From an uncultured Alphaproteobacteria bacterium (lineage in GTDB: Bacteria; Pseudomonadota; Alphaproteobacteria; Rs-D84): 64,000 nucleotides of DNA. This document shows, piece after piece, positions 5,675-26,387 of the stretch; positions within the stretch are counted from its first letter, which is position 1; each line of letters opens with the position of its first letter. The stretch covers positions 2,612-66,611 of the forward strand of contig CAJONJ010000039.1 in assembly GCA_905236005.1 (NCBI GenBank). The letters are read 5' to 3'. The position numbers and the translations under genes are program-made. Under the pieces are notes generated by a model. That model saw nothing but the letters and a program-made list of their open reading frames with translations. It made no database searches and was not told where the DNA came from.

Positions 5675-5675
5675 A

Positions 5676-6374: not shown

Positions 6375-6384
6375 ATTTTCACCT

Positions 6385-7662
6385 TTATTTTGTATAAATA
6401 ATTACTTCGTATTGCCACATACGTGTAACAGCATTCCACGCAACAGATGTCATATACACACCATCAAAATCATTAAATATATGCATAAATTCTGTTGGTA
6501 TTAATTTAGACGCAGCAGAAATTTCAACGATATTCACACTTTCTGTATCTACACCATTTGTCACAGTATCTGTTACAGGATTTATATCTGCACGTATATT
6601 TATCTGTTGAAAATTCGTAGTAATATCACGCACGGCACTGGCTATATCACGTTCATCCAATGATGCATACGTTTTTAATTGTGGTAATCTAACACGAACC
6701 ATAACTTCGTTTTCAGACAATTGCTGAACCATTGCACCAGGCATTAATTCTGCACCATTAAGATAAAATTCATTTATTGTTCCAAAATTACGTGCAAATG
6801 TAACAGACACAAAATCTTCACCACATTTTGCATAGGTTTGATTCCACCCGGGAATTGGCTGCATAACAAACGCAATAGCTTTATAGCATAATTTGGCACG
6901 TTCCATAACATTTGGTAAATAATCGTATGGAAATTCGATTGGTGTAACTTCTTGTTTTGCTATATCTAATTGTTTTGCTAATTCTTGTTTTTTTAATTCA
7001 ATATTACGTTTATATTCTGCAACTAATTCAGGATTAGTCTGCACAGGTGATGATGAAAAAAATACACGTCTTATTTTATCACGAAACAAAACCCCACCAA
7101 CCAACAGAACCAAAACAAAAAATATAATCGTTGGCCAAATAGAATTAAAAACATTTATTGGATGCAGTCTGGCAGAAACAGAAGGACGTATTAATTCAGA
7201 AATAAATTTTTCCTGTGCCTTAGGCATTCCCCACGATGCAGGCGCAAACAAACCACCCCAATCAGGAATATTTGATAATTCTGTATATAATTTACGTGCT
7301 TGTTCTGCTGTTTCAATTAAAACATCACGAATTATTACACCATTACGCACAGCCACCAGATAAAAATAATTATTTACCTGAAAAACTCCTAAAAAAGACA
7401 CAAATTCAGACAAAGAATCAACAATTTCAGCTGCCGCACTTGGTAAACCAACATAAACCCCTGTGTTTTTATCACCCAAACCAACCATGGATTTATAATC
7501 TACAAATAATGTATATTTTTTATCTATATTTTTAGATAATTGCTTTGCATAATTTAACGCAGTATTACCAACACTGACAGGCTGCCAAAACAAGCCCGTT
7601 GCAAATTTTTTACGATGAACTGTTATTATTTGCTTTATCAATTCTCTCTCTGTTATACACAC
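6385..7662 (-). CDS. bitopic inner-membrane protein with GspL/PilO-like topology
   Basis: 425 aa. A cytoplasmic N-domain of about 180 aa is followed by a single TM (IWPTIIFFVLVLLVGGVLF) and a periplasmic C-domain of about 220 aa. Its position upstream of the ATPase and platform matches GspL or R64 PilO. Confidence 0.3.
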   Translation of the reverse strand: MCITERELIKQIITVHRKKFATGLFWQPVSVGNTALNYAKQLSKNIDKKYTLFVDYKSMVGLGDKNTGVYVGLPSAAAEIVDSLSEFVSFLGVFQVNNYFYLVAVRNGVIIRDVLIETAEQARKLYTELSNIPDWGGLFAPASWGMPKAQEKFISELIRPSVSARLHPINVFNSIWPTIIFFVLVLLVGGVLFRDKIRRVFFSSSPVQTNPELVAEYKRNIELKKQELAKQLDIAKQEVTPIEFPYDYLPNVMERAKLCYKAIAFVMQPIPGWNQTYAKCGEDFVSVTFARNFGTINEFYLNGAELMPGAMVQQLSENEVMVRVRLPQLKTYASLDERDIASAVRDITTNFQQINIRADINPVTDTVTNGVDTESVNIVEISAASKLIPTEFMHIFNDFDGVYMTSVAWNAVTRMWQYEVIIYTK

Positions 7663-7733
7663 ATTATAAACAAACGAACCAAAAAAATAAAGCCATATTT
7701 TATAATAAAAAGTCGTTAAAAAACGACTTTTTA

Positions 7734-8045
7734 TTATTTGTTACAATTATAAACTTTAACCTTTAATGTATACGTTTGTTTTGGTCCAAATATTGCACCA
7801 ACATTATCAGCAATTGATTCATTGACTATATAATAAGAATCACCACGTTTTTGTTGATTTAATATTTTTTGTTCCAAATAATTATACACATCTTCTTTGG
7901 TATAGTTTGTTATATCAGATGTCATAGTATATAAATACGTACAATCTTTTGGTTCTTGATATAATCTATTCAAACCTGTTCCTGCAGTTATTGTTTCAGC
8001 ACATGCGACCAATACCCCACATAAACAAATTATGCTTTTTTTCAT
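7734..8045 (-). CDS. small lipoprotein, 103 aa
   Basis: Signal peptide with lipobox LVAC. Its start overlaps the lpxC stop codon (ATGA). Confidence 0.4.
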   Translation of the reverse strand: MKKSIICLCGVLVACAETITAGTGLNRLYQEPKDCTYLYTMTSDITNYTKEDVYNYLEQKILNQQKRGDSYYIVNESIADNVGAIFGPKQTYTLKVKVYNCNK

Positions 8046-10783: not shown

Positions 10784-10860
<77 letters not shown>

Positions 10861-10871
10861 GAGCTTCAAAA

Positions 10872-10903
10872 CTTGCCCATCGGGGCAAGTTTTTGTTTGT
10901 TTT
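10872..10903 (+). terminator. intrinsic terminator after tRNA-fMet
   Basis: CTTGCCC-ATCG-GGGCAAG hairpin followed by TTTTTGTTTGTTTT. Confidence 0.65.
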
Positions 10904-10919
10904 CCAATATCTACAAAAA

Positions 10920-10969
10920 GTTCGAAAGTTGTCTTTTTGAAAAAGGCTATTTTTCTACTACTTTTGAAC
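10920..10969. repeat. about 50-nt dispersed repeat with 9-bp imperfect terminal inverted repeats (GTTCGAAAG...CTTTTGAAC), copy 1
   Basis: Aligns with the copies at 11854-11903 and 13222-13270. All three share GTTCGAAAGT, a central TTTnAAAAAnGC block and a terminal CTTTTGAAC. Confidence 0.5.
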
Positions 10970-11683
10970 CATAGAATTTTGTTTTTGTTGTAAAAGTATA
11001 TAATCTTTCATCATTTTTTGCACTGCACCCGGTAAATCTGTTTTAATTGCTTCTGGTGTTATATACTTATCAACAAACGGATTTATAAACTTTTCTTGAA
11101 TATGTATACCAAAAAATTTTATACCAATTAAGTCAACAATCCGTTCTTTGAAATTTTGTGGAACATTATATTTTTCAATTATTGGTTTTTCTATTAAAAT
11201 ATGAATAACTTCATGCAACATAGTATTCAATATCTTTTCTTGATTATCTGGATACCGTGACATACGAAATACAATTTTTGCTTTTTTATCAGATGCAAAA
11301 TACGAAGCACCATTACCATATGCACATAATATTTCTAATTCATTTGGCATTGTCGTGTTCCACGATTTTAACAAAGGAACCAAAAACTTACTTATTCCAC
11401 GTTCCATCATCGGTATAACATAAGATTTCATAATTGAATCGTATTTTGTTAAATCATTAACGTTATAAATTTCTTGTTTGAAAAATTTACTATATTTTGC
11501 TATGTCTTTGTCAGTAAGAGTTTCTTTTTCAAACATTTCTTTGACTATTGGATTCTCGGGATTTGGAACAAAATTATTCATTGTATATCCAAAATGTTTT
11601 AAATTGGTATGAAACTCATGATGCTCTTCTAAAATAAATTGCCACATTTCTTTTTGGGTCATCGGTCTTATTGTTATTTGCAT
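10958..11683 (-). CDS. hypothetical protein with HEXXH motif (putative zinc metallopeptidase-like), 241 aa
   Basis: Intact ORF containing MLHEVIHILIE. Lies inside the tRNA-flanked islet. Confidence 0.4.
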   Translation of the reverse strand: MQITIRPMTQKEMWQFILEEHHEFHTNLKHFGYTMNNFVPNPENPIVKEMFEKETLTDKDIAKYSKFFKQEIYNVNDLTKYDSIMKSYVIPMMERGISKFLVPLLKSWNTTMPNELEILCAYGNGASYFASDKKAKIVFRMSRYPDNQEKILNTMLHEVIHILIEKPIIEKYNVPQNFKERIVDLIGIKFFGIHIQEKFINPFVDKYITPEAIKTDLPGAVQKMMKDYILLQQKQNSMVQK

Positions 11684-11762
11684 ATTAAATCCTTTTTATA
11701 CTGATAATTATATCATAAACTTGTTTTTAAAATCTATTATTTCCTGTCTAACATCCAACAAC

Positions 11763-11828
11763 TCGACTCGAGAACTGCACACACTGCACAACCAGAATTT
11801 ACAAAACCGTCCATAAGGGCGGTTTTTT
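11763..11828 (+). ncRNA. candidate small RNA or repeat unit (TCGACTCGAGAACTGCACAC...) ending in an intrinsic terminator, copy A
   Basis: About 40 nt are conserved with copy B at 13004-13072 (CTCGAGAACTGCACACnnnGCACAACCAgAATTTAACAAAA). Each copy is followed by its own hairpin plus T-run. No ORF. Confidence 0.25.
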
Positions 11829-11853
11829 ATTGGATTCTTAATACCTTCACAGA

Positions 11854-11903
11854 GTTCGAAAGTATAAGTTTCAAAAATGCACGTTTTTGTTCAACTTTTG
11901 AAC
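11854..11903. repeat. GTTCGAAAGT...CTTTTGAAC repeat, copy 2, overlapping the start of the transporter gene
   Basis: See copy 1. The ATG at 11877 lies inside the element. Confidence 0.5.
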
Positions 11904-12845
11904 TTTTTTGCAATTTGTTTCCTTTTATGCTACAATTCCTATGCTATGAATTTACTAGGTGTCTTGGTTTCTTTTATCAGTCCGATGGCATATGCAGTAT
12001 CAAATATCTTTGATGCGTATGTGTCTGGCAGTGTTTTCAAGCGTATTCCAACAACGATATTTTATGTAAACCTGACCAACATTCTGGGGATTCTATGTTT
12101 GCCACTGTTCGGGTCAATTCATTCTTTGTCGCCAGCTGCGTGGTTGTTTGTGTTGTTATCGTCCATCATAAATGTTGGGTACCAGTTTCCGTATTTTGCC
12201 GCATTAAATAAAACAGACACATCGGTGGTGGTGGCTCTGTTTCAATTGAAAAAGGTCTTTATACCATTGTGGGCTTTTTTGATTGTTGGCGAAGTTTTAC
12301 ATCCGGTTCAATATGCCGGGTTTGGTATCATAATCTTGTTTTCATTGCTGCTGAATATAAATCCAAAGGCAAATATAAAAATCAATGCTGGGTTTTGGTT
12401 GATGTGTCTGACGGCTATAATACTGTCGTTTGAGGGTGCTTTCTACAAGGCATTACTGGAACATACAGATTGGGTGTCGGCGGCATTCTGGGTGTCGGTT
12501 ATATCTTTTGTTGTCCAATTCATGATGATATTCTGTCGTCCAGTACGCAAAGATATTGTTAAAAACTTTGGCAAATATCGCAAAAAGTTCGGTATGTTTT
12601 TGTTTGTGGAATTCTTTGATCAATTGGGATCATTCAGTCCTATATTCGCACTGTCGTTGATTCCGGTTCTGGTTGATTCTGGGATTCAATCGGTTCAGCC
12701 GATTTTTGTTGTGCTTTATGGTGTAATCTTGGCACGATTTTTCGGCAAGCGATTCCACGAAGACATTTCTAGCGGCACGATGATTAAAAAGATAGTTTGT
12801 TTCGTTATGATTGGTGCCGGTGTAATGATGACATTGATATCATAA
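11877..12845 (+). CDS. DMT-superfamily (EamA-like) membrane transporter, about 10 TM
   Basis: 322 aa, polytopic, two-repeat hydrophobic architecture. The true start is possibly the downstream Met (MNLLGVL). Confidence 0.5.
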   Translation: MHVFVQLLNFFAICFLLCYNSYAMNLLGVLVSFISPMAYAVSNIFDAYVSGSVFKRIPTTIFYVNLTNILGILCLPLFGSIHSLSPAAWLFVLLSSIINVGYQFPYFAALNKTDTSVVVALFQLKKVFIPLWAFLIVGEVLHPVQYAGFGIIILFSLLLNINPKANIKINAGFWLMCLTAIILSFEGAFYKALLEHTDWVSAAFWVSVISFVVQFMMIFCRPVRKDIVKNFGKYRKKFGMFLFVEFFDQLGSFSPIFALSLIPVLVDSGIQSVQPIFVVLYGVILARFFGKRFHEDISSGTMIKKIVCFVMIGAGVMMTLIS

Positions 12846-13003
12846 ATTTAAACACAACATAAGTATTTTCTTCATATTTTAACCTTTGTTTTACAAGCAT
12901 GATAATACAACAAATCCTACCCTTTTTTCAAACCTATTATTTCAAATCTGCTAACCCTAATTTCTCTTTCAACGCATCAATCTCTTGACCTATTTCTAAT
13001 AAT

Positions 13004-13072
13004 TCGGCTCGAGAACTGCACACCGAGCACAACCAAGATTTAACAAAAAGCATCCATTGTGGATGTTTTTTT
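13004..13072 (+). ncRNA. candidate small RNA or repeat unit, copy B, with terminator CATCCATTGTGGATG plus T7
   Basis: See copy A. Lies downstream of the transporter gene. Confidence 0.25.
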
Positions 13073-13203
13073 GTTAAATATGTGTGTTGTGTTGGGTTTG
13101 AGCCACCAAAAAAGGTGGTTCACTACAAGCGAGAGCCAGACGGAAGTATGGCGGTCAACCTACAAGGTTGACGAGTGCAGTGAGGCAAAAATTTCATTTT
13201 TAC

Positions 13204-13218
13204 CAAATCCATCTCCCG
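13204..13218 (+). repeat. 15-nt direct repeat of the tRNA-fMet 3' end (CAAATCCATCTCCCG); putative distal att site
   Basis: Exact 15-mer match to tRNA positions 10840-10854, 2.36 kb downstream in the same orientation. Confidence 0.4.
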
Positions 13219-13221
13219 TAA

Positions 13222-13270
13222 AGTTGAAAGTTTGATTTTAAAAAATACGATTTTTATAGTGCTTTTGAAC
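13222..13270. repeat. GTTCGAAAGT...CTTTTGAAC repeat, copy 3 (AGTTGAAAGT variant)
   Basis: See copy 1. Immediately follows the att-like repeat and overlaps the 3' end of the 13254 gene. Confidence 0.45.
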
Positions 13271-13847
13271 CGTCTTTTAATATTTTCCCTAAAATAGCCA
13301 TATCTAATTTTTCAAAATCTGGTTTATATAATTCAAATTTATCTTGCTGTTGAATCAATTTATCCCATAAAATATCAGATTGTTTTCTGGACATATTTGC
13401 AAAAACAGTTTTATCTTTTAAAACATATATTTTTATGTTTTTGTCTTTAATTTCCTGCATAATATCAATTGTAATAACATTTTTTATTTTCACATCTGTC
13501 AAAGAATAATATTCATCTTCTATATCATGTTTAAAACCAACAGAATCTAATTCATAAACATATGCTTTTTCTGGAACATTTTGCTTTAAACATTCAACAT
13601 ATAATTCATTATTTTTTACTGGGCTTTTATAACCGGTAGCAACTAATCGCATAATTGCATAAAGACGTGCACGTACAAAATCAGATGTTGCAAAAGCAGC
13701 AATTATTGGTGTTTTCATATTATTGATGTAACCTGGTTTCATACGAATAAAACCATCTGTTATTTTTATTTCAGACCCATGATAAAGAATTTTTGGTAAA
13801 CTGTTATTCATAACGGATATTATATCACAAACCATAAAATAATTCAA
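13254..13847 (-). CDS. hypothetical protein, 197 aa, translationally coupled to the upstream surface-protein gene (ATGA overlap)
   Basis: Intact ORF with no recognisable motifs. Confidence 0.4.
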   Translation of the reverse strand: MNYFMVCDIISVMNNSLPKILYHGSEIKITDGFIRMKPGYINNMKTPIIAAFATSDFVRARLYAIMRLVATGYKSPVKNNELYVECLKQNVPEKAYVYELDSVGFKHDIEDEYYSLTDVKIKNVITIDIMQEIKDKNIKIYVLKDKTVFANMSRKQSDILWDKLIQQQDKFELYKPDFEKLDMAILGKILKDGSKAL

Positions 13848-16833
13848 TTTACACTGACAGTATCGTCATAAATATAATAAACACCACTCGAAACACTTGT
13901 CCCAACTGGAATATTTACTTTCAAACTATTACCGCTTTGTAAATTACTGAAATCTGCATTCATTGGCACAAGTGTTGTTCCCATATTAGCATAAAAATCA
14001 GGAATGCCGTCATTATCAATATCAACATTTAATGACGGTGTCATTTGTTTTGTTCTGCGTAAATACACATATTTATCTCCAATATGTAATATATGACCAC
14101 ATTGTGCAGATTCCCACATACCAGCGGGTGCAAACAAACCACTTTGACAAGGTATTATTCCCTGATTGTTTATTTCATCAAAACTGTAAGTACCACCAGG
14201 ACAATAATTATTTACTGGACATTTCGAGCACACATTGCTGTTAGCTGGCAAATAATATCCATTATTACAAGACAAACTGCTTGCCACAACTTCTAAGCAA
14301 CCATTAACACTTGTGGTCGCACCATTTGCTGTACCGTCTGCTGTATATCCAGAATCGCATGTACATGTACTACGTGTATTCTTAGCTGGTGTGGAGCTGT
14401 TTGCGCCACATGCATAGCAAGATGTACTATCATATTTATAATAATTTGTCGCACACGTTTTACGTGCATAATATGTTGTTATAGCAGGGACTGCTGATGT
14501 AACTGGTGCAATTGTTGTAACGGTATTATCAGTAATATCCTGAGTTATTGCCCAACTTGTTGAAATATCATAATGTCCGTTACCACCTGGTGCAGGCAAA
14601 CTAATCGCTGGTAATGTGCACGCTGTATTGTAGAACAATTTTAATTGTGCATTAGTTGTACCTTCTGCCACACTAGCAACATAACATCCAATTCCAGACA
14701 ACCCCTCTATTACACCAGAATAACCGTTTTTATGTAATGTAATCATATAATAACAATCTGTCTGAACAGTAGAACCCACATCACTAGACCAACCCACACC
14801 TATCTCTGTCGCACAACTATTTATACCTTGATCAGTAGTATCAAAATACAATTGCCCCCCAGGGCACCAATTGCCAGCAGTGCAAGTTGTGCAAGTTTGC
14901 GAGTTTGCAGGTATATATTTACCTGCAGAACAAACTGTAAAACCATCCGCCAAGACGCAATCAGCAGAACTGGTCGATGTTTCTGTCAGTGTGATATCCC
15001 CAGGGGCACATTGGGTTCTTTGGCTGACTGAACCATAAGATGTCATACTAGCAGAAGAATAATAACCTATTCCAACATTTTCACAAGAGGACCCACCAAA
15101 TGTCCCCAAAACACCCCCAGCAACAAAATCGCCAGTTCCACTGTTACCAAAGAATCTACCACTAACCAGATCATACATACCAATTGCGTTATCAGACACA
15201 CGCCTAGCAGGTATAAAATCAAAAATTAACGTACTGTTTTCATACATTTTAAACCAATGTATGCGACCAGTTAACAGCGTGTCGTTACACCCACCAACAC
15301 AACCATTAGAAAACAATCTATATTTGTTATTTGAAATAATTGACCCACTAAAAGTACCAGATGTAGATGCGTTATCCACAGATAAAGATCTATTGTTACC
15401 TGTAAATTCGTATGTAATATGTTTTATCTCCCCAGCATTAAAAATTCCACCGACTGTTATTTTTGAACCTGTGCTCGAACCTTGAGCATTAGCAAATGCA
15501 ACCCATACACCAAATTTGTTTTCCTTAAAATTAGCCGCATGACCATTCAACGCGTCCTGATTTCCACCAAAATGCCCAAGAGTTCCAGAACCTTCTACCG
15601 AAGAACTATATTCAAGTTCCGCTTTAAAAGACGTTGAAGAAATCACATGGCCCGTATCAATATACTGTTTTCCATTTGCTTCTATATACGACAACCTTTC
15701 GTATTCACCTGTCCATTTTCCAGCAGGGCAACTGATTTTACAATCAGAAATAGACGTTTTTCCATCTTGTACATCACCATCATAACCCGATGGACACGGC
15801 AAACAGACACTTCCACTAAGATATTCCGCACCTGTACACGAGGTATGCTGAATTATCGCACAGGCTTTTTTGCTGTCCCAACTGTTTTTATACGCACTAT
15901 AATAAGTATCGGTAACATCATCTGTTCCATTTGGACAGCTTGTTACCATGTTGGATTTTTTAAATGCAGAATTAAATAAATTAGTAGCAGTTTGTCCATG
16001 TAACCCCAGGAAAGTATTACCAGGAATATATTGATTAGTCGTCGTAAAATTAACCTCAAAAAAAACGTATACATAAACATGTTGGCCGCAGCACCATCTA
16101 TATTTGGGAATAAATTATCTGGAAACACAGACAGCTTCTTGCATTGATAGAAAGCACTACGAAACATACTTTCTGCAGACCCATATGCATAACTAAACAA
16201 ACCATCAGGAATACCTGTCAAATTTGTACATTTATCAAAAACGGAACGAAACAAATTTTTCTTCGCGGTTGTTACACCAGAAAATAAATTCCCAGAAATT
16301 GTTTGCAACTCTGTACACCCGTTGCATAAATCAAAAAACGTTGGTTTGTCACTGTCATTAGTACCACCATTCAGCGTCGGAAAAGCCGAACCAATACTGC
16401 CATCTAAAGAAGCAATAAGAGTTGGTGTTCCACCGGTGCGTGTTGATATATTGTTGTTTGAAGCACCAAATCTGATTGCGGCACCAGATGAATCTTTATC
16501 ATTATTATAACTTGTTGTATTATATCCTGTTGCAAGTCCTGCAAATTTTATTATTCTTTGACCAGCCGTCGCATAAGTATGAGAGTATTCTGTCGGGGTA
16601 GTATTGTTATTTCGTGTAATGATTTCCACAGAGCTTCCATCATTCCAATCAACATAGAATATTCCTGATGCCGATAAAACAAATTTAAATACCGCATTTG
16701 CATTCAGGTTTGTCGTAGTTATTGTAAATTTTGTATCAACACAACCGTTTCCTGTATCTATTTCAGATGCCGTACACGCAACAGCCACTGTAATATTCAT
16801 CACGAATATACAAAGTGCACATATAAAACACAA
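13844..16833 (-). pseudogene. frameshifted or phase-variable large secreted surface protein (BspA-like LRR N-region plus Cys-rich CPxG repeat region), about 1000 aa if restored
   Basis: The track gives two ORFs (15943..16833 and 13844..15949) overlapping by 7 nt. The 3' 45 codons of the upstream ORF are low-complexity junk that begins exactly at the A8 tract at 16058-16065. Adding one A fuses the frames in phase (...NMFMYTFFFEVNFTTTNQYIPGNTFLGLHGQTATNLFNSAFKKSNMVTSCPNG...). The protein has an N-terminal signal peptide, LRR-like FxxCxxLTxIPDxLF repeats and many CxxCPxG motifs. Confidence 0.55.
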
Positions 16834-17002
16834 AAAAATATTTTTTAATTTCTTTTCCTTTTTTTTAGTTTTTTTGTGTCATAGCAAAAAAAACATTCCC
16901 TCCATATTAGGAATAATACTAACAAAATTGGATAATTTTATACAAGCATATTTTTGTTAAAAATTGCAGCTGATAACAATAAATAGAAACCATATTTTAT
17001 GG

Positions 17003-20000
17003 TTATATATTTTCATAAACACCGTATAAATCAGGACTTGGTTGTACAGTTTGTCCATCTGTAATTTTTTCTCGCAATCTTTTATTTGCTAATTTTAACG
17101 CATTAACAATACTTAATTTTCCAGGAACCATACTATTTGATTGTTCTAAATTTTTAATTCTGTCTGTTGGAACCAATGTTGGTTTATAATCTTTAACATC
17201 TTCTATGTTTATAATTTTATCTAATATTTTAATTTTTTTATGGTTATGATTGTATTTAACAGACATATTTTTATTTAAAATTTTAGATATCATTTTATAA
17301 AACAAATCATTTTTAATACCCATATCGTCTGTAAAGGTATCATTAACATTTTTATCAATAACACCTGATGTTTTAAGTGCAACAATAATATCAAAAAAAT
17401 CTTTATCGGTTAAACTTTTACCAGGATGGTGTTTACCATCTTCATCTATAAATGGCTTTTTATATTCAATTATATCAGACAAAGCCAACAAGCCACGTCT
17501 GACACATTCAAGATATTCAGAATGTTTTTGTTTTATCAATTCTTTTTCTATGACACTAGTATCTGGCACTTGTATATTTGGCATATTCAGCATCGGTTCA
17601 TATTTGTTTTCGGCAAAAAACATATTACGTAAATCAGATTGATAATATTTATACATAATCTTGGTTATGTATTTTTTTATTGTTTCATCATTATTTTGAA
17701 TATCGTTTATTGCTTTATTTAAAACATCTGATATTGATTTATCTTTTCTAGAATTCTGTATAATTTTATAAATTAACAACCCCAATAATCTTCTATCTAT
17801 ATCACTTGGTAAATTATCTATTTGTGCACCAGTATCAAAAATACCTATATGAACAACACCTTCTTGATCTGTATAAAAATTTTGCTGTCCAGCATGCCTA
17901 TCTGTATCCCATTTTTTACCAGATAACAATATTGCTAGTTCCAAAGCAACATATGCTTTTGCGTTATCATGTTGTTGTTTATCTGTATGTTTTGCACTGG
18001 TCAAAGAATCACCTTTGGCTAATTTCATAATTTTAAAAGCATTTTTATTATTTGGCATTGCACCAAACGCAACCCATTCAGCCACATCCACTTTATATTT
18101 TTGATTATTTAAACTGATTTCAAAAGGCGAATAATTATCAACAGCTTGTTTATATTTTTCATAATCTTTGTCGATATCTATTTCGTTATGACAAGATTTT
18201 TCTGCTTGTTCAAAAATATTTTTTAAAACACCAAATTTCTTTTCATCTCGCCACACCATAGATTTAATAGTTCCAGAAATAAAATCCAAATTTGTCATCA
18301 TTTTGTTTTGAATATTTTCACGCATTAACGCAACAACACAATCTTGGTTATCATATTTTACCTGAACTGTAACATAAATAGAACCAGCACCTAAAACATC
18401 ACCAACATAAGATATTTTACTATATTCTTCTGACGGCAAAGATTGTTTCAACATATCAAAAATTTCTTTACGATCTGGAACACTTGCTTTATCACGCAAA
18501 GTTGCTAGTTCTGTTCGTATTTCTGCTGGCAAAGATGGTAAATACGATAACATTTGTCCAAATTTTATAAATGCATCACCTTTGTATTGGAAAAAACCTT
18601 TTAATCCACGACCAATTTGTTGATTAGAATCTGTATTTTTTACAACATTGTTTGTTTTCACCATTGTTAATAATGTGCACAAATCAAAATTACGTTCCGC
18701 CATGGTTTCATTATTATATACAGATTCGATAACTACACCTATGGCGTTTTTTGTTTCTTCATCTGTTTTCATACTTTTAAATATTCTATTTAAAACAAAT
18801 TGTATTTTTTCGTCTGGATTTTTGCTGTAACCATCTAATAATGGATTCAAAAAATATGCCTGAACCGGTAATGGCGAATGTGAAAAATTATCATGAATTT
18901 GTTCTAAAACTTGTTTATTTCCCCACTCTTCTTTTCCAAAAAAAGGCTTATTTTGAATTGCTGATAAAAATTTATTGCAAGATTCATCTGTAAAATTATT
19001 TGTTAAAAATTCTATACCTTCTTCTGCTAAATTGCTGACACATAAAAAATCCACAACATTTTGTGCAATACGTACAGGCCAATCATATTTCACAGCATCT
19101 TCATTACCTGCTTTGCTTTTATATTTAGCATCAAATAAATTTGCAATTTCAAATTGTGCAGTAATTTTATCTGCTATTTTTTTACTTAAATTTTCAATAC
19201 ATATATTTATACCTTCTTTGTTTATTGTTTTTAAATTATCCAACCATTTTACACAAGAATCCACTTTGTTTAAATAATCCATTTGTCTGGTATCTTTACC
19301 CAAACGCACAGCCCAATAATTTGCGATATAATCTAATAATTTTTCCCTTTCGGTCATTACACCCAAACATCTTTTTTCTTTATATTCACCATATTCTTGC
19401 AATAAAATATTCACAGCTAATCTTAAACGATTGTTTGTTTCCTGTGTATTAAAATTCGTTTCGTTAATTTTATACTTGGTTATATCATTAACCAATATTT
19501 TTAACATATCGTTTTTATGTGTAAAATATGTAGAGAAAAATTTATATTTTAACATATAATCATATATATCAATTTTATCTTGAACTGAATATTTTTTATA
19601 TGATTCTACATTAATACGCTTATCAATAAAATTCTGTTGAGGCAGTTTCAGTCCTATAATAAAATGGTCAAATAATTTATTATCTTTTGAAAATTTTACA
19701 AAATCTATTACATCTAATTCATATTTAGCCATATAATTAAATAATACTAAATTAAAAATAAATTCATCACTATCTTTTAACGTATAACAAATATTATATA
19801 ATTCATCTTTATTTTTTGGTGGTGTTATACCCAGAAAATCTAATATTTTTTGTGTTTTGTTTGCATCATCTATATTAGAACCATTTGCTAATATATGATA
19901 AGCTAATGATATAAATTGTGAATATTTTAATACACCAGAATATTTTTCAATAACATATTTATTATTAATCGCATGTTCCAGAATTATTTCTGAATCTTTT

Positions 20001-21745
20001 ATAAAAAACAATCTGTCATATACTTGTAAAACTTTATCTTTGTTTAATGATTTTTGTGTAGCGAAATCAATAACATTTAATATAACAGGACGTAGTTTTT
20101 CTTGTTTTAAATCTAAATGATGATCTACTGTGCTTTTGTTACCAGAATCATAAATATTACTTTGACAACCAAAATAATTATAAAAATATTCGTTCTGTAT
20201 TCTGTTATATATTTTTTGGTACAATACATCAAATTCGTTTGGTAACATACTATGATTTCCAAATAATTCATCAACATCATGTTTATCTATAAAATCCCAA
20301 CAATCTAAACAAGATTGAACGCTTTTTTCTTTATCATATTTTGCTAATAAATTTAACAATTTGATTTTATTATCATAAAAATCTTCAAACAAATATTCTT
20401 GAACAATACCGTTTTTATTTACAGAATATATTTCTGTTTTAACGGTGTCTTTATAACCATAAGAAATATTATTATAATACAATCGTATTACATCATTAAC
20501 AGATTGATTATCATAAGATTTTAATTGTTCAAATGGTAATAATTTACCAATATTATCTTTGCCAAAACCTGTAAAAATTGAAACATCTTTTTTATCTTTA
20601 TAATCAGCAAAAAAATCTAAATATTTATAAATATTTTTGTCATATTTTAATATTTTTTCTGCATATTTTACAGCATTGTCTTTGTTATACACGTTTTTAC
20701 TGAAATCTGTTAAACAATCATTAAATTCTTTAAAAATACCAAACAATTGTAATTGTAAATCTTTTAAATATATATCAGCATAATCCCATTGATATGTGTT
20801 CATAAATATATCTTGTAAAAATTTTTCTTCTTGTTTTGTCCCTGTTTTTTTAAGCATCTCAATATATAAAACAAGTTTTTTAAAAAAATCATCCTGTCTT
20901 TTTTTATTATTTTTAATTTCTTCCATACCACTCAGTTGTACCAAAAATTGCAAAAGAACCATCTGTCCAAATTTATCACGTATATCATAAAAACTAGTTG
21001 TTCCAAAATTATATTCTAATAATGTATCAATATACGATTCTTGATCTTCTTTTGGTAATAATTGTACTGTTTTTATTTTGAAAAAATTCCAATCAATATC
21101 AGTTTTATCTTTATCAATATCTGTAAAATGTTTACCACGTTGTCTTTCTAAAACAGCAATTGCAGCCATAACATTATTTAATCTAAAAGAATCACTGCCA
21201 TGAACATCAGCTATTCTAGCAATTACATCTGAAAAATTTTTATTTCCATTGATACCTATTTTTTCCCATGCAGACATTGCATAATTTGGATTATAACCAG
21301 CATTCATCATAAATTCAACCGCCAAAGTATCACAAGATTGTTCCTGAAAAATAGTATTTTTATTATTTGGAAATTTTAATTGCCAATAATAATGTCCCAA
21401 CTCATGTGCTAAAACAGCAGCAAATTCATCTTCGTTATCCAGTTGTTTTATCAACCCACCAGAAACAGCTAAAACAGCTTTATATTTTGGATCTTTTATA
21501 TATTGTGAATCAGTAACAGTAAAAGCACCTACTTCATCTGAATTATACCCTGAACAATAAACTTCTTCTGGTTTAAGATTTAATTTATCATTATTTGCAT
21601 TTAAAAGCTTAGTTAAAACATTTTTGATTTTTTCAGATATTAATTTATTTACTTTATCATCAGGATTATACAAACGCAGTTTTTCAAAAATATCTTTGTC
21701 TAATATTTCTTGATTTTCTACTTTTTTTTCTTCTGTATCAGCCAT
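17003..21745 (-). CDS. giant 1580-aa multidomain protein: N-terminal M48-like zinc metallopeptidase domain, long helical middle, C-terminal UbiB/ABC1-like atypical kinase domain
   Basis: The N-terminal region has AVLAHELGHYYW followed by EQSCDTLAVEFMMNAGYNP...EKI, matching the HEXXH...E..AD pattern of M48/HtpX peptidases. The C-terminal region has IKFGQMLSYLPSLPAEIRTELATLRDKASVP, ...GAGSIYVTVQV, ...TDRHAGQQNF and ...IGIFDTGAQ. These align with the UbiB/ADCK signature KFGQxLSxRxDxxP...LxxLQDxVxP, the ASIAQVH loop, HADxHPGN and IDxG. No TM segments. Confidence 0.6.
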   Translation of the reverse strand: MADTEEKKVENQEILDKDIFEKLRLYNPDDKVNKLISEKIKNVLTKLLNANNDKLNLKPEEVYCSGYNSDEVGAFTVTDSQYIKDPKYKAVLAVSGGLIKQLDNEDEFAAVLAHELGHYYWQLKFPNNKNTIFQEQSCDTLAVEFMMNAGYNPNYAMSAWEKIGINGNKNFSDVIARIADVHGSDSFRLNNVMAAIAVLERQRGKHFTDIDKDKTDIDWNFFKIKTVQLLPKEDQESYIDTLLEYNFGTTSFYDIRDKFGQMVLLQFLVQLSGMEEIKNNKKRQDDFFKKLVLYIEMLKKTGTKQEEKFLQDIFMNTYQWDYADIYLKDLQLQLFGIFKEFNDCLTDFSKNVYNKDNAVKYAEKILKYDKNIYKYLDFFADYKDKKDVSIFTGFGKDNIGKLLPFEQLKSYDNQSVNDVIRLYYNNISYGYKDTVKTEIYSVNKNGIVQEYLFEDFYDNKIKLLNLLAKYDKEKSVQSCLDCWDFIDKHDVDELFGNHSMLPNEFDVLYQKIYNRIQNEYFYNYFGCQSNIYDSGNKSTVDHHLDLKQEKLRPVILNVIDFATQKSLNKDKVLQVYDRLFFIKDSEIILEHAINNKYVIEKYSGVLKYSQFISLAYHILANGSNIDDANKTQKILDFLGITPPKNKDELYNICYTLKDSDEFIFNLVLFNYMAKYELDVIDFVKFSKDNKLFDHFIIGLKLPQQNFIDKRINVESYKKYSVQDKIDIYDYMLKYKFFSTYFTHKNDMLKILVNDITKYKINETNFNTQETNNRLRLAVNILLQEYGEYKEKRCLGVMTEREKLLDYIANYWAVRLGKDTRQMDYLNKVDSCVKWLDNLKTINKEGINICIENLSKKIADKITAQFEIANLFDAKYKSKAGNEDAVKYDWPVRIAQNVVDFLCVSNLAEEGIEFLTNNFTDESCNKFLSAIQNKPFFGKEEWGNKQVLEQIHDNFSHSPLPVQAYFLNPLLDGYSKNPDEKIQFVLNRIFKSMKTDEETKNAIGVVIESVYNNETMAERNFDLCTLLTMVKTNNVVKNTDSNQQIGRGLKGFFQYKGDAFIKFGQMLSYLPSLPAEIRTELATLRDKASVPDRKEIFDMLKQSLPSEEYSKISYVGDVLGAGSIYVTVQVKYDNQDCVVALMRENIQNKMMTNLDFISGTIKSMVWRDEKKFGVLKNIFEQAEKSCHNEIDIDKDYEKYKQAVDNYSPFEISLNNQKYKVDVAEWVAFGAMPNNKNAFKIMKLAKGDSLTSAKHTDKQQHDNAKAYVALELAILLSGKKWDTDRHAGQQNFYTDQEGVVHIGIFDTGAQIDNLPSDIDRRLLGLLIYKIIQNSRKDKSISDVLNKAINDIQNNDETIKKYITKIMYKYYQSDLRNMFFAENKYEPMLNMPNIQVPDTSVIEKELIKQKHSEYLECVRRGLLALSDIIEYKKPFIDEDGKHHPGKSLTDKDFFDIIVALKTSGVIDKNVNDTFTDDMGIKNDLFYKMISKILNKNMSVKYNHNHKKIKILDKIINIEDVKDYKPTLVPTDRIKNLEQSNSMVPGKLSIVNALKLANKRLREKITDGQTVQPSPDLYGVYENI

Positions 21746-21855
21746 AATTTTACCTTTATTTTTTTATTTTTCAGCAATAATTATAACAAATTTTACAGTT
21801 AAAAAAAACAGTTTTATGATATCTAGGACAATCTATTAAATTAAATATATTGATG

Positions 21856-22470
21856 TTATATTAAACATTTTTTTAAATTTTCACCTGTATCATTTTGATC
21901 AACATGTTTATTACGAATTTCTTCTTCTGCTTTGATACGTTGTTTTAACAAAATAATATCAGGATGATTTTGTATTTTTTCATTGATTTTATCTATGGCA
22001 GATTCTATATCTTGTTGATTTTTCACAAAAATTGGTGTAATAGAATCAGCAGCAGACATCACAGATTGCTTTAATAAATCTGCATTATCATCTATGATTG
22101 ATAAATATGCACGTATATGTTCATCTTCATGTTGTAAAATTGCGTTATATGAACAACTGTCTGGCTTATGAGAAATATCTATTTGAACCAAAAAATCAGA
22201 ATATCCAATAACAGCATCTACATTTTTCAATGCGACACAAAAACCATCTTCAATAGAAGTTATATCTGTTGTTATTTCATAATTATCAACCATTGTTGCA
22301 ATAACTTCACCATGTAATATATCCATCTGTTGCAAAGGTTGAACCACACTTTTTTCCCAAGATGGATTTTTTATATTTATTTTTGGTGTTAATTTATATC
22401 CTAAACAATCATCTCCAAAAGATATTGTTGGAACAAATAAAATTAATAAAAACAAATAAAATAATCTCAT
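21856..22470 (-). CDS. small secreted protein with HEXXH motif (HEDEH), 204 aa
   Basis: Signal peptide MRLFYLFLLILFVPTISFG. Motif LQHEDEHIRAY. Encoded between virB4 and the giant gene with only a 3-nt gap to virB4. Confidence 0.45.
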   Translation of the reverse strand: MRLFYLFLLILFVPTISFGDDCLGYKLTPKINIKNPSWEKSVVQPLQQMDILHGEVIATMVDNYEITTDITSIEDGFCVALKNVDAVIGYSDFLVQIDISHKPDSCSYNAILQHEDEHIRAYLSIIDDNADLLKQSVMSAADSITPIFVKNQQDIESAIDKINEKIQNHPDIILLKQRIKAEEEIRNKHVDQNDTGENLKKCLI

Positions 22471-22473
22471 GAA

Positions 22474-24888
22474 TTACATTGTTTGCTTTTTTAAATATTC
22501 TGCAACAAAATTATTTCCATAATTTTTATATAATTCTTCTGCCAGTAATACAGATGAACGCCCAGATTCAAATAAACGTAACATATTACCTAAACCACCT
22601 AATTCTGTATTTAAAACCACAGATTCACCATTAACAGGTCTTGATAATAACACAGCACGTTTTAAATTTGGATATGCTTTACCTTGAATAAACGCCATTT
22701 CCAAAGGATTTAAATTCCATTTTTCATAATCACTGATATCAGCGGCTGGATTACGGAAAAACAACACAGTTTGTGCCTGTCCACGAACAACATCACCTAT
22801 TCCCATTTTATCTAGAACATTTGCACGTTGGAAAGAAACCATATAAGCTTGTCTATTTTTACGTCCTTCTTGTAAACCAGCTATGAAATTATCACGAAAC
22901 ATTTTATTTTCTAACATAGGTGCTGTTTCATCAATCATAATTAATGAAGGATTTCCACCGGATACAGTTATTGTGTTTATTCTGTGTAATATATAAGATA
23001 TAACCGCAGGTGCCAAAATTTCATCTTGTAATATATCTGTGAAATCAAAAGTAGTTAACCGAGAATATAAATCCAAAGTATCTTCATTTTCATTAAATAT
23101 ATCACCATATTGTAAATCATCAACCCATTTTTTCAAAGCACTACGCATATTACCATCTGATGAAAAACAACTTTCATATAAATTTTTTAACAACCTGTCT
23201 TTATCTGATAAATAATCAAAATTCACAGACACAGCACGAGCAATTTCATCAGTTGATAAAACATCTGTTTGACCTGTTATTATTGCAAACCATCTACGCA
23301 AGAAAGCTCTGTTTACGGCTGTATCTGGCATTTTTAACGGATTTAAATGTGTTAAAAATGTATTATTTTCTTCATTTTTTTCTTTACCATTCATAGTGAT
23401 ATATTTACCACCAACAGACAAAGTGAAAATTTCAGCACCTTTGTTTCTATCAAAGAAAAATACTTTTAATTTCGGGTGTCTTAAAGATTGAGCAATCAAA
23501 AACGAAAATAAAGTTGTTTTACCACCACCTGTTGGACCAATTGTCAAAGTATGTCCCACAGCAGCTGGTTTATCAGATACATGAAATTGAAATTGATACG
23601 GTGTTCCTTGTGCTGTTGGAAATACAACCAATGGGCCAGGACCCCAATCACTGTTTTTAATACCCTGTGGCATAGAAGACAAAGGTATACTGATTGCAGC
23701 TGTCCTAGATAACATTTTAAAACTACGTGGGAAAACATCAAACCCTGGTATTTTAGCAAAAAATGATACTTTTGCTGCAAAATTTTCAACCACAGGTGAT
23801 ACACCAAAACCAGCACATATTTTTTTAAATTCTGCAATATATTGATTTAATTCATCTAAATTATATCCAAATAAAACAAAAGAAGGATAATAATCAACCA
23901 AAGTTTGATTTCCTGTAATATTTTCATCCATTGAAAATTCTGCTTCCGCTAATTGCTCTGTTGTAGATTCTCTATTTTTATCAGTAATTGTTGATTTATA
24001 TTGCCGTATTAAAAAATCAACATCTTTGTATTGCAATATACGAAAAGCATTCATTGTTATCATTTCACATTGCAAAGTAGATATAGAATCATAAAAATCT
24101 TCATCTAAATAATCAGGTGATATTTTAAAAGATAACATAGCTGAATAATATTTTTTATCACCACTAGTATATTCTACTATACCATTATTTTTAAAATCTA
24201 CATTATCAACTGTCACTACATTGGATATATTATCATCACATTTTTTTATCACAGGTTTTGATACAGGCGACAAAATTCTGCCAAAAAATGTAGCCATATT
24301 ATCAAAATTATCATTTTTTAATAATTCAGGTTTATAAACAGATAAAATAGATTCTATATATCCACAATATTTATCTAGTTTATCTTTATTATTTTGTCCA
24401 GAAACAGAAATAACAAGATAATATGTATTTGTATAAATTTTTAAACCTTGGTTATTCCATTTATTATATATTTTTTGTAACACAGGTTGATCAAATTCAT
24501 AATTTGTTTTTTCATCAGCAAAATCACGTATTGTAAAAAATCTTAAACAAACATCTGAATCTTGTATTTGATTAAATAATTGAGCTCTTAAATCCAGTAA
24601 TTTTTCACGATTTTTACTATCCATCATACTGGTTTGAACACCTTTGATTTTATAAACACGAACCAAAGAACCATCTGTGGTTGACAAAGTATTATCGGTA
24701 TAAACTTTATCAAATGGTAAATATTCAGAATATTTAACATAACCAAACTTTGGTAAAATCTTTTTATTTATCAAAGGAATAAATATTAACAATAAAATAA
24801 ATGCTAAAACTATCAATAAACAAACAACAGTTAGATTTAACATCATTGAATTAGTATTACCAGCAAAATAATCAAATATTTTTTCCAT
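22474..24888 (-). CDS. virB4: type IV secretion system ATPase VirB4
   Basis: 804 aa. Walker A motif IGPTGGGKTT, Walker B motif LIMIDE, CagE/TrbE/VirB4-like length, N-terminal hydrophobic segment. Preceded by virB3. Confidence 0.85.
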   Translation of the reverse strand: MEKIFDYFAGNTNSMMLNLTVVCLLIVLAFILLLIFIPLINKKILPKFGYVKYSEYLPFDKVYTDNTLSTTDGSLVRVYKIKGVQTSMMDSKNREKLLDLRAQLFNQIQDSDVCLRFFTIRDFADEKTNYEFDQPVLQKIYNKWNNQGLKIYTNTYYLVISVSGQNNKDKLDKYCGYIESILSVYKPELLKNDNFDNMATFFGRILSPVSKPVIKKCDDNISNVVTVDNVDFKNNGIVEYTSGDKKYYSAMLSFKISPDYLDEDFYDSISTLQCEMITMNAFRILQYKDVDFLIRQYKSTITDKNRESTTEQLAEAEFSMDENITGNQTLVDYYPSFVLFGYNLDELNQYIAEFKKICAGFGVSPVVENFAAKVSFFAKIPGFDVFPRSFKMLSRTAAISIPLSSMPQGIKNSDWGPGPLVVFPTAQGTPYQFQFHVSDKPAAVGHTLTIGPTGGGKTTLFSFLIAQSLRHPKLKVFFFDRNKGAEIFTLSVGGKYITMNGKEKNEENNTFLTHLNPLKMPDTAVNRAFLRRWFAIITGQTDVLSTDEIARAVSVNFDYLSDKDRLLKNLYESCFSSDGNMRSALKKWVDDLQYGDIFNENEDTLDLYSRLTTFDFTDILQDEILAPAVISYILHRINTITVSGGNPSLIMIDETAPMLENKMFRDNFIAGLQEGRKNRQAYMVSFQRANVLDKMGIGDVVRGQAQTVLFFRNPAADISDYEKWNLNPLEMAFIQGKAYPNLKRAVLLSRPVNGESVVLNTELGGLGNMLRLFESGRSSVLLAEELYKNYGNNFVAEYLKKQTM

Positions 24889-24891
24889 ATC

Positions 24892-25251
24892 TTATACCAC
24901 TAACCTTTTTGGAATTTTATTTCTTAATAATCTTAATTTAGAAAATATTATTTGTGCTATTTGTGGGTCACGTTTAGAATAAATACCTAAAATAGAATGA
25001 GATAATATTAAACAACCTAAAAAACTGAGTGGTAAAGCGAAACTGTTTACACCAAAAACTAAACTAAAAACCAATAACACAATAAATAAAACAAACCAAA
25101 ATATAAAATTTAATATAGCAAGAGAATACGGCACATAAAATATGCGTGGTGGATTTGCCAAAGCTTTTAGAACTTTTTGTTTCAAAACTCCCTCTCCTGA
25201 TATACTAATTATAACAATTTCAACTTTTTTCAACAAGCATAAAAGTAACAA
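24892..25251 (-). CDS. virB3: type IV secretion system protein VirB3
   Basis: About 100-120 aa with two TM segments and an LKALANPPRIFYVPY-like VirB3 N-motif. Lies immediately upstream of virB4. Confidence 0.55.
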   Translation of the reverse strand: MLLLCLLKKVEIVIISISGEGVLKQKVLKALANPPRIFYVPYSLAILNFIFWFVLFIVLLVFSLVFGVNSFALPLSFLGCLILSHSILGIYSKRDPQIAQIIFSKLRLLRNKIPKRLVV

Positions 25252-25405
25252 GTTTTAAAAATGTTGAAAATATTAAAAATACATTATTTTTCAACTGTTT
25301 ATTATTTTACGATTTTTTTCAACAATTTTATAAAAAATCCCTAAAATCTAAGATTTTTTTGTTGAAAACTTGTTTAAAAAAAGTTTATTTTAATTTTCAA
25401 CAAAA
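25216..25405. promoter_or_regulatory. array of six TTTTCAACA / TGTTGAAAA 9-mers upstream of virB3 (operator or iteron-like; alternatively degenerate DnaA-box cluster)
   Basis: Plus-orientation copies at about 25218, 25289, 25315 and 25395. Reverse copies at about 25262 and 25360. All lie in a very AT-rich 250-bp divergent intergenic region between virB3 and rpmJ. Confidence 0.4.
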
Positions 25406-25498
25406 CTAACAGACATAATAAAAACAATAAATAAATATAATAAATATTTGATTTTTTATAAAACTGGTTTATAATTGCCCAGTAAAAAGGATTTTGAT

Positions 25499-25633
25499 AT
25501 GAAATTTTTAAGTTCTTTAAAAGCTTGGAAAAAACGCGGAAATATTAAACAAATTCGTCGTGGAAAACAAGTTATATTAATTGACCCTGCAAATCCAAAA
25601 TTAAAGGCAAAACAGGGCTTTAAACGGAAATAA
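25499..25633 (+). CDS. rpmJ: 50S ribosomal protein bL36 (zinc-independent YkgO/alpha-type)
   Basis: 44 aa, MKFLSSLKAWKKRGNIKQIRRGKQVILIDPANPKLKAKQGFKRK. Close to the E. coli YkgO / Rickettsia L36 pattern MKVxxSLK...RRGKxxVI...NPRFKAxQG. Missed by the ORF track because of its size. Confidence 0.7.
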   Translation: MKFLSSLKAWKKRGNIKQIRRGKQVILIDPANPKLKAKQGFKRK

Positions 25634-25688
25634 TACAGTCCAATTGGATGATATTTTTCATACCCAGGTATTATATTTGGGTATTTTT

Positions 25689-26387
25689 TTATTGTTCTGA
25701 TAAAAATGCCTCTTGCAGCACTTTTTTTACTTCTATTTCACCCATACCAGACATACGTAAATAATTTATTTGTTCATTATTTGGTTTATAGATACTGGCA
25801 CTATGGACAGCATTTTTAGGGACAGATTGTATATATTGGGTTGGTTTTAATGTTATTTTAGCTGTTTCATCTGCCATAACAGAAAAAGAAATATCACTGT
25901 CACAGAATTTTTTATTTTTATTTATAATTGCATAACCATTTAATATAGTTTTTGTATTTTTATGTGCTAATACTTTTGTTTTTATAAAAATACCAGTATT
26001 TTCACATAAATGTTCACCTTTTGAATTTATTTCCAAAGAATCATAATTTTGTGCTATTATTTGTCCGTTAAAAACACTATTTTTACCGGTATTTTTAACA
26101 AAAATATTCAAAAAAGCCGGTTTTTTGTTAATAATTTTACCGGAAAATATAATATCAGTATTTTTAGCAGTTATATCTATATTTATATTGATATTACCGG
26201 TTATTTCACCAACATATATAATATGTATTTGTAATTTAGGTGTTTTTAAAATAGATATAGTATTGTTATCAGAATTATAATTTATATTAGTATAATCTGA
26301 TAAATCTTCACAAAAAACACCATCACGAAAAACTAAAGTTTCCGCAGGAAATGTTTTTATATTGAATTCTTGCCAAAGGTATGACAT
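25689..26387 (-). CDS. SufB/SufD-family protein (short, 232 aa)
   Basis: C-terminal block DSDISFSVMADETAKITLKP...EQINYLRMSGMGE matches the SufBD signature DDVxCxHGATxGxLDEExLFYLxSRG. No sufC or sufS adjacent. Confidence 0.5.
   Translation of the reverse strand: MSYLWQEFNIKTFPAETLVFRDGVFCEDLSDYTNINYNSDNNTISILKTPKLQIHIIYVGEITGNININIDITAKNTDIIFSGKIINKKPAFLNIFVKNTGKNSVFNGQIIAQNYDSLEINSKGEHLCENTGIFIKTKVLAHKNTKTILNGYAIINKNKKFCDSDISFSVMADETAKITLKPTQYIQSVPKNAVHSASIYKPNNEQINYLRMSGMGEIEVKKVLQEAFLSEQ

Follow-up and report, generated by a model that had tools for sequence, protein, structure and literature searches.

Here we describe a conserved three-gene operon, virB3-virB4-x204, in a stretch of 64,000 nucleotides (the window) from a metagenomic scaffold of 138.8 kb that derives from an uncultured gut alphaproteobacterium. 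We favor, with a probability of roughly 0.7, the view that the locus consists of this operon, which encodes two type IV secretion system (T4SS) proteins and an exported 204-amino-acid protein (x204), beside a variable slot linked to a tRNA-Met gene, and that the genes in the slot, here termed cargo, are not members of a T4SS operon. An earlier sequence-only reading of the same DNA had taken the six minus-strand open reading frames (ORFs) at 13254-25251 for a single T4SS-linked operon with effector cargo; all six ORFs are present, but the single-operon assignment is not supported, given the variability of the slot, the promoter-like elements that precede cargo genes, and the tRNA-Met gene at the slot's far end.

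The genomes nearest to the window are “Candidatus Enterousia”/Rs-D84 metagenome-assembled genomes (MAGs) from the rumen, omasum, ileum, and feces of goats, sheep, yaks, and horses. The host is therefore not a member of the Rickettsiales, as had been supposed, and is instead a reduced-genome gut alphaproteobacterium of the Rs-D84 or “Ca. Enterousia”-like type. The alphaproteobacterial order Rs-D84 has genomes that are mostly <1 Mb, and reliance on a partner organism has been predicted; Rs-D84/Enterousia are common in ruminant and horse guts, and their means of contacting the partner cell is not known (PMC12306168). That study does not mention T4SS, and a literature search found no paper connecting Rs-D84 or Enterousia with type IV secretion. 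Relatives were collected by a VirB4-based scan with one genome per species, which gave 30 related loci (designated by L numbers), 29 of them assembled past virB4; the locus of each relative was read over ~22 kb and the source scaffold over ~81 kb (~9% of the genome). Mapping the window proteins onto the 29 Rs-D84 species loci revealed a common backbone with the order rodA-topA-dnaG, ychF, sufBD-like, (rpmJ), virB3-virB4-x204, a variable slot, tRNA-Met, and DUF374-lpxK-lpxC, which continues past lpxC as pilO-like-x232-T2SSE-T2SSF.

The identities of VirB3 and VirB4 proposed from sequence were upheld by hidden Markov model matches and Walker motifs. VirB3 passes the Pfam family cutoff narrowly (PF05101, 24.7 bits versus 23.9) and has a long hydrophobic stretch at residues 14 to 61; its start had been placed at 25251, but an alignment of 12 species moves it to a conserved TTG at ~25182, preceded by the Shine-Dalgarno (SD) sequence GGAGAGGGA. 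VirB4, which has an N-terminal hydrophobic segment, matches TIGR00929 over residues 190 to 800 (382.7 bits, E value 3.6e-114; the full-length cutoff of 643 is not reached), Pfam PF03135 (CagE_TrbE_VirB; 49.7 bits, cutoff 21), and TrwK of R388 (E value 5e-37). Both the Walker A motif (GPTGGGKTT, residues 451 to 459) and the Walker B motif (IMIDET, residues 650 to 655) are intact, and both are kept in L003. Homology identifies VirB3 and VirB4 as the inner-membrane ATPase module in a machine of the T4SS type. Across Rs-D84 species, VirB4 is 78 to 86% identical, about the same as TopA and DnaG. The best-scoring NCBIfam equivalog model for VirB4 was PRK13898, which we take to be the Rickettsiales-type VirB4 model, and it reached 238 bits, far under its cutoff of 1050; with this score and with a host in Rs-D84, the proposed rvh-type assignment could not be confirmed.

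Only virB3-virB4-x204 is tightly packed. Gaps of 3 nt separate these three genes, so this part of the tight spacing described for the cluster stands; the next gene, which encodes a 1580-residue protein (the giant protein), begins 110 nt beyond x204, and a further ~170 nt containing a promoter-like element separates it from a gene for a cysteine-rich protein. In every related locus that extends far enough, x204 comes after virB4, and the protein is 69 to 84% identical across Rs-D84 species. A second x204 paralog (~26 to 32% identical) lies between virB4 and the conserved x204 in six species (L003, L018, L027, L028, L030, and L031). Comparative genomics thus shows that x204 is co-inherited with the VirB3-VirB4 module, and the two are probably co-transcribed. 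The earlier reading correctly placed a gene other than virB6 after virB4 but listed x204 as one cargo gene among several, when it is the gene truly linked to virB3-virB4; virB6 paralogs after virB4 were seen neither in the window nor in any of the 29 related loci.

Upstream of virB3 lies the conserved control region of the operon. The 290 bp between virB3 and a divergent rpmJ-like gene are strikingly conserved and contain an invariant promoter-like block, CTTGTTGAAAAAAGTTGAAATTGTTATAATT, with the extended -10 element TGTTATAAT, as well as 5 to 7 GTTGAAAA/TTTTCAAC boxes that alternate in orientation and keep their positions in the 12 aligned species; even the distant L032 retains two of these boxes. 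The exact 10-mer TTTTCAACAA occurs five times in the 64-kb window (1.96 copies expected in the whole window), and four of the five copies fall within 25227-25403 at positions kept across species, in agreement with the repeat-rich control region that had been noted there. The box array suggests a dedicated DNA-binding regulator, for which the boxes are probable binding sites.

The third gene of the operon encodes a protein with the features recognized from sequence alone, a hydrophobic, signal-peptide-like N terminus and the motif HEDEH. We found 547 close homologs of x204, and a profile run against 1.84 billion cluster representatives recovered 299 x204-family clusters, nearly all with lengths of 200 to 250 aa. 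Across 61 divergent members, G54, C78, H114, E115, H118, D191, and C202 are invariant and C22, C106, and P146 reach a conservation of 90% or more; the family has four conserved cysteines, D191 is the only invariant acidic residue besides those of HExxH, and conservation is strong over the whole length rather than in the motif alone. An AlphaFold2 (AF2) model of x204 (predicted local distance difference test [pLDDT] score of 88.8) has a beta-hairpin subdomain and, after it, a helical bundle, with HExxH on the helix spanning residues 106 to 128. Foldseek searches with this model against PDB and BFVD returned nothing significant, and searches of Pfam, NCBIfam, PHROGs, PADLOC, and PDB sequences assigned x204 to no family; single family members gave weak and sporadic Pfam matches to DUF922, M56, Tox-MPTase2, and eCIS_core. 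The terms metalloprotease, metallopeptidase, and HExxH are not mentioned in the 2025 T4SS nomenclature review. We consider x204 to represent a new, unannotated family that is associated with VirB3-VirB4 and has no profile similarity to VirB5 or VirB8.

It is unlikely that x204 is instead a structural T4SS subunit, a lineage-specific replacement for VirB5, VirB7, or VirB8 whose HExxH would be a relic or serve as a structural metal site. The gene stands in the VirB5 position after virB4, its product resembles VirB5 in size and likewise carries a signal peptide (as with the PF07996 gene that follows virB4 in an Erythrobacter plasmid), very strong conservation over the full length would suit a subunit, and rvh systems of the Rickettsiales are without VirB5 (PMC2653234). 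However, PF07996 (VirB5) matched neither x204 nor the 61 family members, and profile comparisons with hhalign gave a probability of 0.1% against the Erythrobacter plasmid PF07996 protein and 0.1 to 0.2% when the nearest plasmid systems supplied the VirB5-like and VirB8 proteins (0.2% for VirB8/TrbF). In addition, H-E-x-x-H is invariant across ~300 divergent clusters, as is typical of catalytic sites, and the genes of some members occur singly, with no virB4 nearby. In the explanation that we favor, virB3-virB4-x204 would be vertically inherited and driven by its conserved and unusually elaborate promoter region, and x204, which would occupy the canonical VirB5 gene slot without homology to VirB5, would be an exported, disulfide-bonded zinc metallopeptidase that acts in the periplasm on or with the VirB3-VirB4 machine. 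It could process a pilin or another subunit, act on a substrate of the machine, or remodel the cell wall or envelope; in other systems, envelope remodeling is carried out by VirB1.

The VirB3-VirB4-x204 triad is also present in L032 (VirB4 55% identical, GC content 47%), which shares part of the window neighborhood (DUF374-lpxK-lpxC after a tsaE-like ORF). In a second low-GC lineage, whose VirB4 and IleRS are 44 to 46% and 44% identical to those of the window, respectively, each of the four contigs that include upstream sequence (L044, L048, L049, and L051) has a VirB3-VirB4-x225 triad with different flanks, namely, DUF2062 upstream and FYDLN_acid and HSP20 downstream. An in-frame TGA interrupts virB4 of one of these genomes (L044, 2203-2205; MAG GCA_965319815.1); L049 has TTA at this position, so that either a nonsense mutation or a sequencing error accounts for the TGA, and an alternative genetic code was rejected. 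In two further loci, L042 and L046, from another lineage of alphaproteobacteria, an x204-family gene lies 6 kb from virD4. Three conserved genes without Pfam matches precede virD4 there (L042 1-4587 and L046 1-4661), encoding proteins of >545 to 713 aa, 161 to 164 aa, and 409 to 414 aa with hydrophobic N termini; they may be divergent T4SS parts, and homologs of these virD4-flanking genes were not found in the Rs-D84 loci. L042, L045, and L046 also encode a type IVb pilin (Bundlin/PilS), at a distance of 2 to 4 kb from the x204-family gene (4 kb in L045). When x204 and P0299, two members of the family, were used as tblastn queries against 72,556 plasmids, only Microvirga plasmid pMVF16-3 matched, with a protein that aligned to the x204 family at an hhalign probability of 99.8%. 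The same plasmid, which carries a complete virB2-virB11 cluster, was also the top match for the window VirB4 among at least 5000 matching plasmids.

These distributions bear on a possible, if doubtful, alternative in which VirB3-VirB4-x204 is an orphan remnant without other T4SS parts that is kept for a nonclassical function, for example, with an R64-type type IVb pilus cluster ~15 kb away or in the uptake of DNA or nutrients from a partner cell. Pfam searches from -7 kb to +74 kb in window positions detected no VirB6, VirB8, VirB9, VirB10, VirB11, VirD4, relaxase, or integrase, extending what had been noted for the window itself, and no other Vir gene was found in the ~81 kb around the locus or in the ~22-kb loci of the 29 species. 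A cluster resembling the R64-type (type IVb) pilus genes, with PilO-, T2SSE-, and T2SSF-like products, lies at 2969-8045 on the conserved backbone that also carries the virB genes, with neither pilin nor secretin in view; the pilin gene of L045 and the predicted partner dependence of the <1-Mb Rs-D84 genomes (PMC12306168) fit such a function as well. Set against this, the sequence viewed amounts to ~9% of the genome and Rickettsiales-type systems are scattered in islets (PMC2653234), L042 and L046 have VirD4 in addition to an x204-family gene, and the Microvirga plasmid has a complete system. We also think it rather unlikely that x204 founds a so far unrecognized family of exported HExxH proteins dedicated to one VirB3-VirB4 clade and that, in Rs-D84 and the second low-GC lineage, as host-dependent gut alphaproteobacteria with sub-megabase genomes, the three proteins make up a pared-down, VirB4-driven envelope machine, which may cooperate with the nearby type IVb pilus genes and may differ from a classical, complete T4SS.

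In the explanation that we favor, the region between x204 and the DUF374-lpxK-lpxC backbone would be a tRNA-linked plasticity zone with the cargo genes as its current occupants, here accessory genes with promoters of their own, namely, the giant gene, a disrupted gene for a Cys-rich surface protein, a 197-aa ORF, and an islet encoding a protein termed x241 and an EamA transporter; these genes would adjoin virB4 because an integration hot spot neighbors the virB operon. The slot between x204 and tRNA-Met ranges from ~0.4 kb to >9 kb across species. Its minimal form, in L037, consists of x204, ~190 bp, tRNA-Met, and DUF374; elsewhere it contains glycosyltransferases, GDP-sugar enzymes, LrgA/LrgB, and other genes, and in most of the 29 species the slot genes are unrelated, with none of the giant, Cys-rich, or 197-aa genes among them. 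Some slot ORFs share an N terminus, and their likeness to phage tail fibers is an impression for which no search was made. The tRNA-Met gene, the sole Rfam match over 10 to 27 kb, adjoins DUF374 and has its 3' end toward the slot in most species scanned; its orientation differs in L015, L027, and L036, and in L036 the 3' end still faces cargo.

The giant protein had been read as a peptidase-kinase, and both halves of that description find matches, the kinase half a partial one. Its N terminus carries an M48-type HExxH (PF01435, 31.9 bits versus a cutoff of 20.3, E value 1.4e-7), a profile of the giant family matches the M48 structure 3c37 (E value 2e-12), and 8 homologs all keep H114, E115, H118, N130, and E135 unchanged. 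Residues 1010 to 1200 are UbiB/ABC1-like (TIGR01982, E value 6e-10; a partial match of 38 bits versus a cutoff of 487), and the kinase motifs K1061-F-G-Q, G1119xG1121S, D1280xDRHxGQQN, and F1303-D-T are likewise invariant in the 8 homologs; A, S, or Q occupies the position of the expected VAxK lysine, which makes kinase activity uncertain. Predictions gave neither a signal peptide nor a transmembrane segment. The protein evolves fast (~35% identity to its nearest homologs) and is patchily distributed: besides the window, the gene was seen in L002, L003/L004, and L018 alone. In L003 and L018, the block from ychF to x204 is inverted, so that the gene stands behind ychF rather than x204, and in L002 it is divergent from DUF374 and 9 kb from virB4. 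A promoter-like element, TTTGTTATAAT, stands ~35 nt before its ATG, with the same extended -10 as the virB3 promoter, and the predicted RNA fold of the x204-giant spacer was no better than that of shuffled sequence. The most distant homolog, P0008 (1892 aa, 27% identity; L005-L007), is encoded near an ankyrin-repeat protein and a PFOR (pyruvate:ferredoxin oxidoreductase) gene and the precomputed Pfam hits for it include no M48 family.

Outside the window, the Cys-rich gene was found in L010 alone, where it lies directly behind x204 with no giant gene between them, and the cassette carries ~160 bp of its own upstream sequence in common between the window and L010. The frameshift reported for this gene is real, a +2 shift at a T8 tract (16058-16065) that is T6 in the L010 ortholog, and the ATG used in L010 has in addition been changed here to AAA (~16850); these lesions could reflect a phase-variable off state, a pseudogene, or a homopolymer assembly error. 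The leucine-rich-repeat (BspA-type) assignment, in contrast, was dropped, as Pfam was blank on the fragments and on the intact 1005-aa ortholog; one match, to a PHROG of unknown function (E value 1e-15), was obtained. The N terminus is signal-peptide-like, so the protein would be a Sec rather than a T4SS substrate. The 197-aa ORF has no homolog in any related locus and no PDB, PHROG, or PADLOC match, its ART-PolyVal match is weak (E value 0.079), and its single-sequence AF2 model is unusable (pLDDT of 45). The lineage-specific character proposed for the genes downstream of x204 is thus evident in all three: the giant gene occurs in few species, the Cys-rich gene in one other, and the 197-aa ORF nowhere else.

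Within the slot, 33 nt past the stop codon of the 197-aa ORF, lies a direct repeat of the tRNA-Met 3' end. The islet between tRNA-Met and this repeat (10861-13221, 2.4 kb) encodes x241, a 241-aa HEVIH (HExxH) protein, and the EamA transporter. In L008 the x241-EamA segment is found at another site and in permuted order with 95.5 to 97.8% nucleotide identity, whereas VirB4 of L008 is only 86% identical (protein) to that of the window, which suggests that the islet is a mobile cassette that was exchanged recently or has been circularly permuted. The Pfam-annotated genes of the window include neither an integrase nor a recombinase. A 22-nt motif, GAACTGCACACCGAGCACAACC, marks the cassette junctions of the islet (13013-13034, 11772-11793, and 10913-10930 in the window; 1720-1900 in L008), and a hairpin terminator and a ACAAAAAGTTCGAAAGTT box come after it, in that order; zero copies of GAACTGCACACCGAGCACAACC are expected by chance, and it may be a recombination or junction element.

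Several observations weigh against our reading of the locus. The giant gene is within 10 kb of virB4 in all four genomes in which it was seen, and it may have a loose functional link to virB4, with its product perhaps being a secreted substrate. Terminator prediction gave nothing in the x204-giant gap, and transcription from the virB3 promoter may therefore run on into the giant gene. Compositional analysis left acquisition undecided: EamA is the only outlier (GC content at third codon positions [GC3], z = +4.4), and the GC3 of the giant, Cys-rich, and 197-aa genes resembles that of the local backbone, which neither supports nor refutes acquisition. On the side of x204, the family gene is not adjacent to virB4 in L042, L045, L046, and L043, which represent three lineages, nor on pMVF16-3, where it is 44 kb from the virB cluster, and the catalytic role that we propose derives from the motif and weak fold matches.

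The first two of these points, together with the shared strand of all six genes, would also fit a single T4SS-linked operon in which the giant, Cys-rich, and 197-aa proteins are secreted effectors or host-interaction cargo. So would the properties of the giant protein, which has no signal peptide, combines two enzyme-like domains, and evolves at the fast pace of many effectors, and whose distant homolog has an ankyrin-repeat neighbor. We nonetheless judge such an operon very unlikely. Of the two findings in related genomes that the earlier reading had named as refuting its operon, one was obtained, genes in unrelated contexts, and the other, virB6 paralogs after virB4 elsewhere, was not. The linkage is not conserved, as the placement of the giant gene downstream of ychF by an inversion in L003 and L018 and its other contexts in relatives illustrate; most of the 29 species carry unrelated slot genes; the giant and Cys-rich genes have promoter-like elements of their own; the Cys-rich gene is disrupted twice and begins with a signal-peptide-like sequence; and the slot ends at tRNA-Met, with part of it bracketed by the tRNA-end repeat.

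Parts of the locus resemble known systems. Islet A of the rvh T4SS of the Rickettsiales consists of virB3-virB4a-virB6a-e (Gillespie et al. 2009, PMC2653234), with virB8-11/virD4, virB2, and duplicated virB4/8/9 in the other islets of the Rickettsia “archipelago” (PMC2653234). As in islet A, a chromosomal virB3-virB4 pair stands apart from a virB8-virB11/virD4 cluster in a reduced-genome alphaproteobacterium that lacks VirB5; unlike in rvh systems, an exported HExxH protein rather than virB6 paralogs follows virB4, the host belongs to Rs-D84, the PRK13898 score falls well short of its cutoff, and the other islets are not in the sequence read. The P-type virB operons of Erythrobacter aureus and Microvirga pMVF16-3 (virB2-3-4-5-6-8-9-10-11-D4) encode the plasmid VirB4 proteins nearest to that of the window (identity of ~32%, E value 1e-122) and likewise have virB3 directly before virB4 and a secreted protein, of ~200 to 270 aa, directly after it. 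That protein is VirB5 (PF07996) or an unrelated hypothetical protein with no detectable homology to x204, however, and the remaining subunits are contiguous in the plasmid operons and absent at the window locus. With small HExxH zincins such as proabylysin (4jiu), TTHA0227 (2ejq), SprT/Spartan, and DUF922, x204 shares its small size and an HExxH on a long helix after a beta subdomain, but it differs from these minigluzincins and zincins in its signal peptide, four cysteines, and C-terminal N...D...C pattern, with no significant sequence or Foldseek match. Finally, as in tRNA-linked islands, the variable segment ends at a tRNA gene, has an att-like repeat, and carries species-specific cargo, including a block that is 95.5 to 97.8% identical to that of a species with much more diverged core genes; unlike in such islands, the window showed neither integrase nor recombinase, and only EamA appears foreign by GC3.

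The VirB4 of this group is kept about as well as topoisomerase I, is always paired with the exported, zincin-like x204, and is preceded by an elaborate promoter, which together make the unit a candidate partner-interaction machinery and x204 a testable T4SS-associated family. The new elements here are a conserved VirB3-VirB4-zincin-like unit in an understudied, host-dependent gut lineage and the unannotated family that goes with it. The locus also offers a caution that large “effector-like” genes near secretion genes can reflect an adjacent tRNA integration hot spot alone. The positions of all features are collected in Table 1.

Table 1. Features of the virB3-virB4-x204 locus and its surroundings, in window coordinates
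Feature	Position	Strand	Description
Pilus-like cluster	2969-8045		Small lipoprotein-like ORF, PAP_PilO-like protein, coiled-coil signal-peptide protein, T2SSE ATPase, T2SSF platform protein
Backbone tRNA-Met	10784-10860	+	Far end of variable slot; 3' end faces slot
att-like direct repeat	13204-13221	+	17/18 copy of tRNA-Met 3' end (10840-10857)
193-197-aa ORF	13254-13847	-	Overlaps stop of Cys-rich gene by 4 nt
Disrupted Cys-rich gene	13844-16833	-	Cys/Gly/Ser/Thr-rich, predicted exported protein; intact L010 ortholog of 1005 aa
Giant M48/UbiB-like gene	17003-21745	-	1580 aa, cytoplasmic type; variable-slot occupant, not a conserved operon member
x204-giant intergenic region	21746-21855	-	110 nt; promoter-like TTTGTTATAAT and SD
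x204	21856-22470	-	Predicted exported 204-aa protein of unannotated family; signal peptide, HExxH; third operon gene
virB4 ATPase	22474-24888	-	804 aa; TIGR00929, Pfam CagE_TrbE_VirB, Walker A/B
virB3	24892-25182	-	96 aa; conserved TTG start; Pfam VirB3; in all related loci
virB3 operon control region	25183-25410	-	Promoter-like block, SD, conserved boxes
rpmJ-like ORF	25499-25633	+	Conserved, 44 aa; divergent from virB3

Two further observations concern the backbone upstream of virB3. A short (232-aa) SufB/SufD-core-like protein is encoded at 25689-26387, alone and with other suf genes not in view, and its position is kept in all related species. The rpmJ-like ORF has a full-length match to Pfam L36 (23.4 bits, E value 6e-5) that lies just under the family cutoff, and it is followed by a hairpin terminator at 25660-25684.

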